Virus record (IMG/VR): IMGVR_UViG_2703718781_000011
Length of the DNA stretch: 14,139 nucleotides
Source: a virus
Taxonomy: Duplodnaviria; Heunggongvirae; Uroviricota; Caudoviricetes
Direction: 5' to 3' (one strand)
Of the stretch, positions 11,631-13,151 are shown one piece after another (position 1 is the first letter of the stretch; each line of letters starts with the position of its first letter). The translations under genes were made by a program, and so were the position numbers. The notes below the pieces were generated by a model that made no database searches, was not told where the DNA came from, and saw nothing but the letters and a program-made list of their open reading frames with translations.

Positions 11631-13151
11631 ATGAGTAAAGTCTTTATTTGCGCCGCCATTCCGGACGAACAGGCAATAAAGGAAGAAGGTGCCGTCGCTG
11701 TAGCCACTGCCATTGAAGCCGGTGATGAACGTCGCGCCCGCGCAAAATTTCACTGGCAATTCCTGGAACATTATCCGGCTGCTCAGGACTGCGCTTATAA
11801 ATTTCTTGTCTGCGAGGATAAACCCGGTATACCCCGCCCTGCCCTCGATTCCTGGGATGCTGAATATATGCAGGAAAACCGCTGGGATGAGGAATCCGCT
11901 TCCTTTATTCCGGTCGAACCAGAATCCGATCCGATGAACGTCAATTTTGACAAGCTGTCCCTTGAAGTACAGAACGCGGTCCTGGTTAAGTTCGGTACAT
12001 GTGAAAACATCACCGTTGATATGGCGATTGACGCGCAGGAATTACTGCAGGAAGACGTTGCTACCTTTGACGGGCATATCGTTGAAGCACTGATGAAAAC
12101 GCCTGAAATTAACGCTATGTATCCGGAACGCAAACTGTTCGCTATCGGATGGGTTAAACACAAATGTAATCCGGGTGCCAAATGGCCCGAAATTCAGGCT
12201 GAATTACGTAACTGGAAAAAACGGCAGGACGCAGAGCGCAAAGAGACTGGAAAATACACGTCTGTTGTTGATCTCGCCAGCGCCAGAGTCAATCAACAGA
12301 ACACTGAAAACTCAGCAGGAAAAATCAACCCAGTCACTGCCGCCATTTGTCGCGAATACAAGCAGACATGGAAAACGCTGGATGAAGAACTGGCCTACGC
12401 TCTCTGGCCTGGTGATGTGGATGCCGGAAACATTGACGGCAGCATCCATCGCTGGGCAAAAAATGAAGTTATCGACAACGACCGCGAAGACTGGAAGCGT
12501 ATCTCGGCATCAATGCGCAAACAGCCTGATGCCCTTCGCTACGACCGCCAGACTATTTTTGGCCTTGTCCGTGAACGTCCGATCGACATTCACAAAGACC
12601 CTGTGGCACTGAACAAATACATTACTGAATACCTGACTACAAAGGGCGTGTTTGAAGATGAAGGAAGAAATCAGAGCGCAACTGATACTCTCTCGTCGCC
12701 AGTACCAGAAACTGATGCAGTGGAAACGGCAATTCCGGGCAACGAAAAAACCGAATGCAAAGTGGAAGTCGAACCATCTGTAGAGCGTGAGGGGCCGTTC
12801 TACTTCCTCTTCACCGACAAGGATGGCGAAAAATACGGTCGCGCAAACAAACTTTCTGGTCTGGAAAAAGCACTAGCCTTGGGAGCTACGGAAATCACAA
12901 AAGAGGAATACTTCGCACGTAAAAACGGCACGTACTCAGGTTCACAACAAAATACTGGTGCATCTGACACGACCGCACAACCAGAGCCGGTAAAAGTTAC
13001 CGCTGACGAAGTAAACAAAATTATGCAGCCAATATCAGCCAGCCTGACGCCGATAAGTTGCTTGCTGCCTCTCGCGGAGAATTTGTTGCAGGGATTAGCG
13101 ACCCGAATGATCCGAAATGGGTTAAGGGGATTGAAACCCGCGATTCTGTAA
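11631..13151 (+). CDS. N-terminal portion of a large prophage exonuclease (often annotated as exodeoxyribonuclease VIII-like); frame breaks near 13017-13020
   Basis: Protein-like ORF of 506 codons with a GAGG-type SD. Its last roughly 40 codons ([23 protein letters not shown]...) look out of frame, while the -1 frame reads smoothly from 13007. Confidence 0.6.

Follow-up and report, generated by a model that had tools for sequence, protein, structure and literature searches.

The window (the whole 14,139-nucleotide stretch of phage DNA that was analysed) belongs with PPompW, the lambdoid prophage that is integrated at ompW in Escherichia coli O145: its positions 54-14107 align without a gap, and at 99.95% identity, to PPompW of the O145 strain RM9872 (megablast). 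All PPompW prophages of O145:H28 carry multiple gene inactivations and appear to be defective (PMC8112680). The subject of this analysis is a large exonuclease gene that takes its place in the local order DicF-dicB-DUF1482 (ydfD-like)-exonuclease-xis-int-ompW; the genes that lie upstream of it on the same strand are arranged as they are in Qin-like phages. Its parts and its neighbours are collected in Table 1. The matching O145 record gives the two tRNA genes of the table as Arg and Ile; the gene for the Q antiterminator is located upstream of both. A second pseudogene, referred to by RefSeq in the matching O145 prophage as 'fimbrial protein, frameshifted; internal stop', is found on the minus strand at about 4927-5459, where it adjoins the adhesin gene paa (4008-4766, also on the minus strand).

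The two extremities of the window depart from PPompW. Bases 1-53 and the last 32 (14108-14139) find no match in it, and four SNPs distinguish the two sequences at 14058-14082. The last ~80 bases, which take in these four SNPs and the sequence that follows the stop codon, are like the 3' end of a paralogous exonuclease gene, the one in the prophage beside rspB in strain RM13514. Ends of this kind suggest either that a short-read contig terminates in repeated sequence or that there is a recombination joint.

Table 1. Features of the window (positions count from its first nucleotide)
Feature	Position	Strand	Basis or remark
Two tRNA genes	147-220, 314-386	-	Rfam
sok antitoxin RNA, adjoining hokD	3670-3819	-	Rfam
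DicF sRNA	10936-10987	+	Rfam; upstream of dicB
dicB	11162-11350	+	
DUF1482/ydfD-like gene	11347-11535	+	
Upstream ORF, 506 aa, ATG start	11631-13151	+	ORF list, translated
5' part of the exonuclease pseudogene, in frame (codons 1-464)	11631-13024	+	As far as the deletion, identical to the intact E2865 allele (WP_000048478.1)
3' part of the gene in the -1 frame, open after the TGA at 13004-13006	13007-14098	+	Stop at 14098
AAAA run	13017-13020	+	GTAAACAAAATTATGCAG in both alleles; unchanged, not the site of the lesion
Deletion junction	13021-13030	+	TTATGCAGCC in the window, TTATGCAGGCAGCC in intact alleles
Last 42 codons of the upstream ORF, out of frame, then TAA	13025-13151	+	
Longest listed ORF in the -1 frame, 346 aa, TTG start	13058-14098	+	

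The exonuclease gene is distributed over two reading frames that share 145 nt. The first-pass annotation of this DNA described an ORF of 506 codons and a downstream ORF with a DEDDh domain that overlap in different frames, and that description is borne out by the ORF listing, the translations and Pfam alike. Its further statement that the downstream frame is open from 13007 is also right: a TGA codon immediately precedes that position, and the next stop is the one that ends the gene. What is read in that frame has the character of a natural protein, with a CxxC...CxxC (zinc-ribbon) motif followed by a match to PF16473. The tail of the upstream ORF had been called out-of-frame sequence, and its 42 residues do indeed align with nothing in any of the intact homologues. 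In contrast, the -1 frame aligns with these homologues residue for residue, from AANISQ onward. The two halves are thus collinear with one intact homologue, frame 0 specifying residues 1-464 and frame -1, from position 13025 on, residues 465-823.

Over its entire length the intact protein corresponds to PHROG 2082 ('exonuclease'), and it is predicted to be a DEDDh 3'-5' exonuclease of the Rv2179c-like type. The prediction draws on the C-terminal part, where PF16473 (Rv2179c-like DEDDh) is matched over positions 2-177 of its 177 (residues 642-813 of the intact protein) with E = 2.6e-67 and a score of 226 bits, the gathering score being 27. For the 506-aa ORF, Pfam gave no match. Residues 474-621 (13052-13492 in the window), which comprise a linker and the zinc ribbon, share 74% identity with residues 471-611 in the RecE protein of Rac-SA53. 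The NCBIfam equivalog model for RecE, NF007259, is also matched, by residues 242-625 over model positions 267-602 of 877, but the score of 279.7 bits is far below the cutoff of 1269. No RecE nuclease domain was found in the Pfam scan, and no recT gene follows the exonuclease gene. Sequence relatives in the PDB are weak (just 8kel and 8ken, each named 'Exodeoxyribonuclease', E = 1e-6), a literature search on Rv2179c-type prophage exonucleases found no paper, and a search on ydfE of the Qin prophage as an exonuclease found no relevant one. To judge from its sequence, the family is not a member of RecE and the legacy label 'exonuclease VIII' is a misnomer: the catalytic domain is different, the NF007259 score falls short and recT is missing. 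The likeness to Rac RecE (exodeoxyribonuclease VIII) extends to the linker and the zinc ribbon, and to the situation of the two genes, each of which precedes the xis/int end of its lambdoid prophage; RecE has its own C-terminal nuclease where the family in the window has the DEDDh domain. A linker and zinc-ribbon module that is common to RecE, joined to a DEDDh catalytic domain, represents a swap of domains between two types of prophage exonuclease.

The lesion and its position can be read directly from the alignment with the intact 2472-nt allele of E. coli E2865 (encoding WP_000048478.1, 'exonuclease'). The alignment has a single gap, of 4 bp, at 13024/13025. The missing bases are GCAG, one of the two units that make up the direct repeat GCAG-GCAG (GCAGGCAG), and their exact placement is therefore ambiguous within 13024-13029. 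Across the junction, the sequence is AAACAAAATTATGCAGGCAGCCAAT in intact alleles and AAACAAAATTATGCAGCCAAT in the window, so that ...NKIMQAANISQ... in the protein becomes ...NKIMQ|PISAS.... Restoring the four bases yields a protein of 823 aa that is 99.5% identical to WP_000048478.1, and the split is consequently not a matter of chance: near 13020, one large exonuclease gene has been divided by a frame change that amounts to -1, as the first-pass annotation proposed. Where that annotation erred is in the nature of the change, which it placed in the run of four A residues, supposing one A to be missing. Intact alleles keep AAAA and carry the additional GCAG a few bases downstream of it: they show ATGCAGGCAGCC at the site of ATGCAGCC in the window, a difference that identifies the lesion as a deletion of the 4 bp GCAG. 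Nor does adding one A create the fused protein of about 827 aa that had been anticipated: it creates one of 822 aa in which the conserved ...NKIMQAANISQ... at the junction is absent, the intact length being 823 aa.

Intact homologues are likewise directly at hand. The same gene in E2865 (similar to ECO26_1771) has just been referred to; the orthologues in phages mEp460_ev081, Tritos and Evi are single ORFs of 823, 823 and 826 aa, respectively, that are 87-91% identical to the repaired window protein and that all read NKIMQAANISQ across the junction. E2865 and the three phages share the neighbourhood dicB-DUF1482-exonuclease-xis-int with the window and differ from it in keeping GCAGGCAG and one ORF. 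Comparison with intact homologues of ~820 aa had been recommended as a check on the one-A proposal: the expectation of single, full-length ORFs (823-826 aa) held, and the size of the lesion did not. Two separate proteins with the same boundaries, which had been named as the pattern that would speak against a split gene, are not what these homologous loci encode.

The distribution of the deletion was surveyed with an 81-bp query that spans the deletion site, directed against complete E. coli genomes. An exact match to the 81-bp junction was obtained in 18 complete genomes, each labelled O145 or matching O145 records, and the same query aligns to 85 bp in about 4,020 others; about 99.5% of the E. 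coli genomes that have the junction segment encode one ORF. The deletion allele is also present in 11 separately deposited PPompW phage records (LC5678xx). Restriction to the O145 lineage is thus a direct observation, and it can be narrowed further: in strain RM13514, which is also O145:H28, the 2472-nt gene at this ompW locus is intact, and the deletion is therefore confined to a part of that lineage. The PPompW pseudogene of O145:H28 (LC567839.1, NZ_CP028379.1) is the closest counterpart, with the same locus, the same 4-bp deletion and a 506-aa product that, in PPompW_EH1846, is 100% identical to that of the window; the window differs from it by a few SNPs and by the paralogue-like ends. The defect has not escaped earlier attention. 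RefSeq flags the gene as 'frameshifted' (I3Y_RS08040, NZ_CP028379.1), and the depositors of the PPompW records describe a 'putative exonuclease ... frameshifted by deletion of ...' (for example, PPompWEH1846_030 in LC567839.1).

The first-pass annotation had left three explanations standing, a sequencing error, a genuine inactivating mutation and a programmed frameshift. The recurrence of the same 4-bp-shorter allele in 18 genomes and 11 phage records comes down on the side of the second, and we hold it to be very probable that a genuine inactivating frameshift, the loss of GCAG from the 823-aa exonuclease gene of the defective PPompW prophage, has been inherited by a subset of O145. In keeping with a frameshifted pseudogene, most homologous loci by far lack the indel, and the indel is reproduced in independent sequencing (the 18 genomes and the 11 PPompW records). 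The repeat context suggests how the deletion most plausibly arose: slipped-strand mispairing at GCAGGCAG during replication would have led to one GCAG unit being lost. Starting at the native ATG (11631), translation would then yield 464 native residues and 42 out-of-frame ones before it stopped at 13151, and the RecE-like linker with its zinc ribbon, together with the DEDDh 3'-5' exonuclease domain, would most likely not be made. The lesion is recent, since the RM9872 deletion allele and the intact E2865 allele differ over the whole gene by these 4 bp and nothing else. The downstream half of the gene is otherwise undamaged, with its DEDDh domain recognised at full strength by Pfam; this fits a recent lesion and is also compatible with continued use.

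Continued use has two forms that need to be weighed. In the broader one, which we consider unlikely, the deletion allele is not simply dead: either the 464-aa N-terminal fragment, alone or together with a DEDDh domain made by internal initiation, retains a function for the host, or the lesion is reversible by gene conversion from the ~4-5 paralogous exonuclease genes that other prophages contribute to the same genome. A hint of reversible repair comes from the ompW-locus allele of RM13514, in which a patch of 39 clustered SNPs, equivalent to 12866-13443 in the window, spans the deletion site. The patch, of which 24 SNPs match one paralogue in the same genome, suggests gene conversion among the prophage exonuclease paralogues. 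Tested as the donor, the paralogue beside rspB agrees at just 24 of the 39 sites and does not account for the whole patch. The exchange in RM13514 may either have repaired the frameshift or be older than the deletion.

The narrower form, that the split gene works as two products, is unlikely as well. It would have an active N-terminal fragment of 464 aa, or a DEDDh domain generated by internal initiation (at the ATG at 13406 or 13556, for example), or both. The freedom of the downstream half from further lesions is what one would expect of it, but the recency of the deletion, which alone separates the two alleles, accounts for that freedom as well. PHROGs families exist that match stand-alone pieces of the protein, phrog_5943 (257 aa) at the N-terminal side and phrog_14078 (264 aa) at the C-terminal side, but these may themselves stem from broken genes such as K-12 ydfE. 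A GGAGG sequence does precede the ATG at 13406; it ends just 2 nt before that codon, however, and a screen of the start codons of the downstream frame disclosed none with a well-spaced Shine-Dalgarno sequence. A search of 11300-14139 for a promoter-like site was also negative. Separate expression of the DEDDh half accordingly looks unlikely from the signals that the sequence offers.

That the window is simply in error, and that the genome from which it comes has an intact 2472-nt gene, is very improbable. The features that lend themselves to this explanation are those already described at the extremities: bases 1-53 and 14108-14139 and the four SNPs between 14058 and 14082 are like paralogous copies in other prophages, which suggests a draft contig, in a region that has about 5 paralogues per genome, and would by itself make the assembly less trustworthy. 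Against this, the same 4-bp-shorter junction was obtained by independent sequencing projects, in finished genomes as well as in phage records, the closest relative (PPompW_EH1846) specifies exactly the same 506-aa product and the lesion does not lie in any homopolymer. Sequencing error is excluded as the source of the allele by its recurrence across independent genome projects and by its location outside a homopolymer.

Equally improbable is restoration of the full-length protein by programmed -1 ribosomal frameshifting or transcriptional slippage, for which the 145-nt overlap (a -1 shift anywhere inside it would fuse the frames) and the A4 run within it might be enlisted: no X_XXY_YYZ heptamer is found in the zero frame of 12990-13151, AAAA and GGGG are the only homopolymers of the overlap, an A4 run is too short for efficient transcriptional slippage, the 130 nt downstream (13021-13150) fold no better than shuffled sequence (MFE z-score of +0.5) and the two-frame arrangement is not conserved, homologues being single ORFs in about 99.5% of the E. 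coli genomes that have this segment and in three free phages. The first-pass annotation had likewise found no classical slippery heptamer and had ranked this explanation last, and on both points we concur.

What remains is ordinary prophage decay, neither recoding nor sequencing error, of a kind that the public annotation already records. The exonuclease gene has in fact been broken repeatedly and independently. In the Qin prophage of K-12, ydfE (L009:4579-5499) is a member of the same family, 88% identical over residues 1-256 and in the same place after dicB and ydfD, and it is also inactivated. The manner of its inactivation is different: ydfE is cut by IS2E and not broken by a 4-bp deletion, and all that would follow residue 256 is lost. 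IS600 interrupts the same exonuclease gene in strains 7_26_9A, 20.1 and RM6927.

The frameshift is thus to be regarded as one more step of decay in a prophage that has already been described as defective, and the event proposed for it is corrected, from a lost A to the deletion of a 4-bp repeat unit. The difference between ATGCAGCC in the window and ATGCAGGCAGCC in intact alleles provides a simple marker for the sublineage of O145 PPompW that carries it. For the family as a whole, the legacy name 'exonuclease VIII' misleads: what these predicted exonucleases have in common with RecE is the linker and zinc-ribbon module alone, and a DEDDh domain stands in place of the RecE nuclease.
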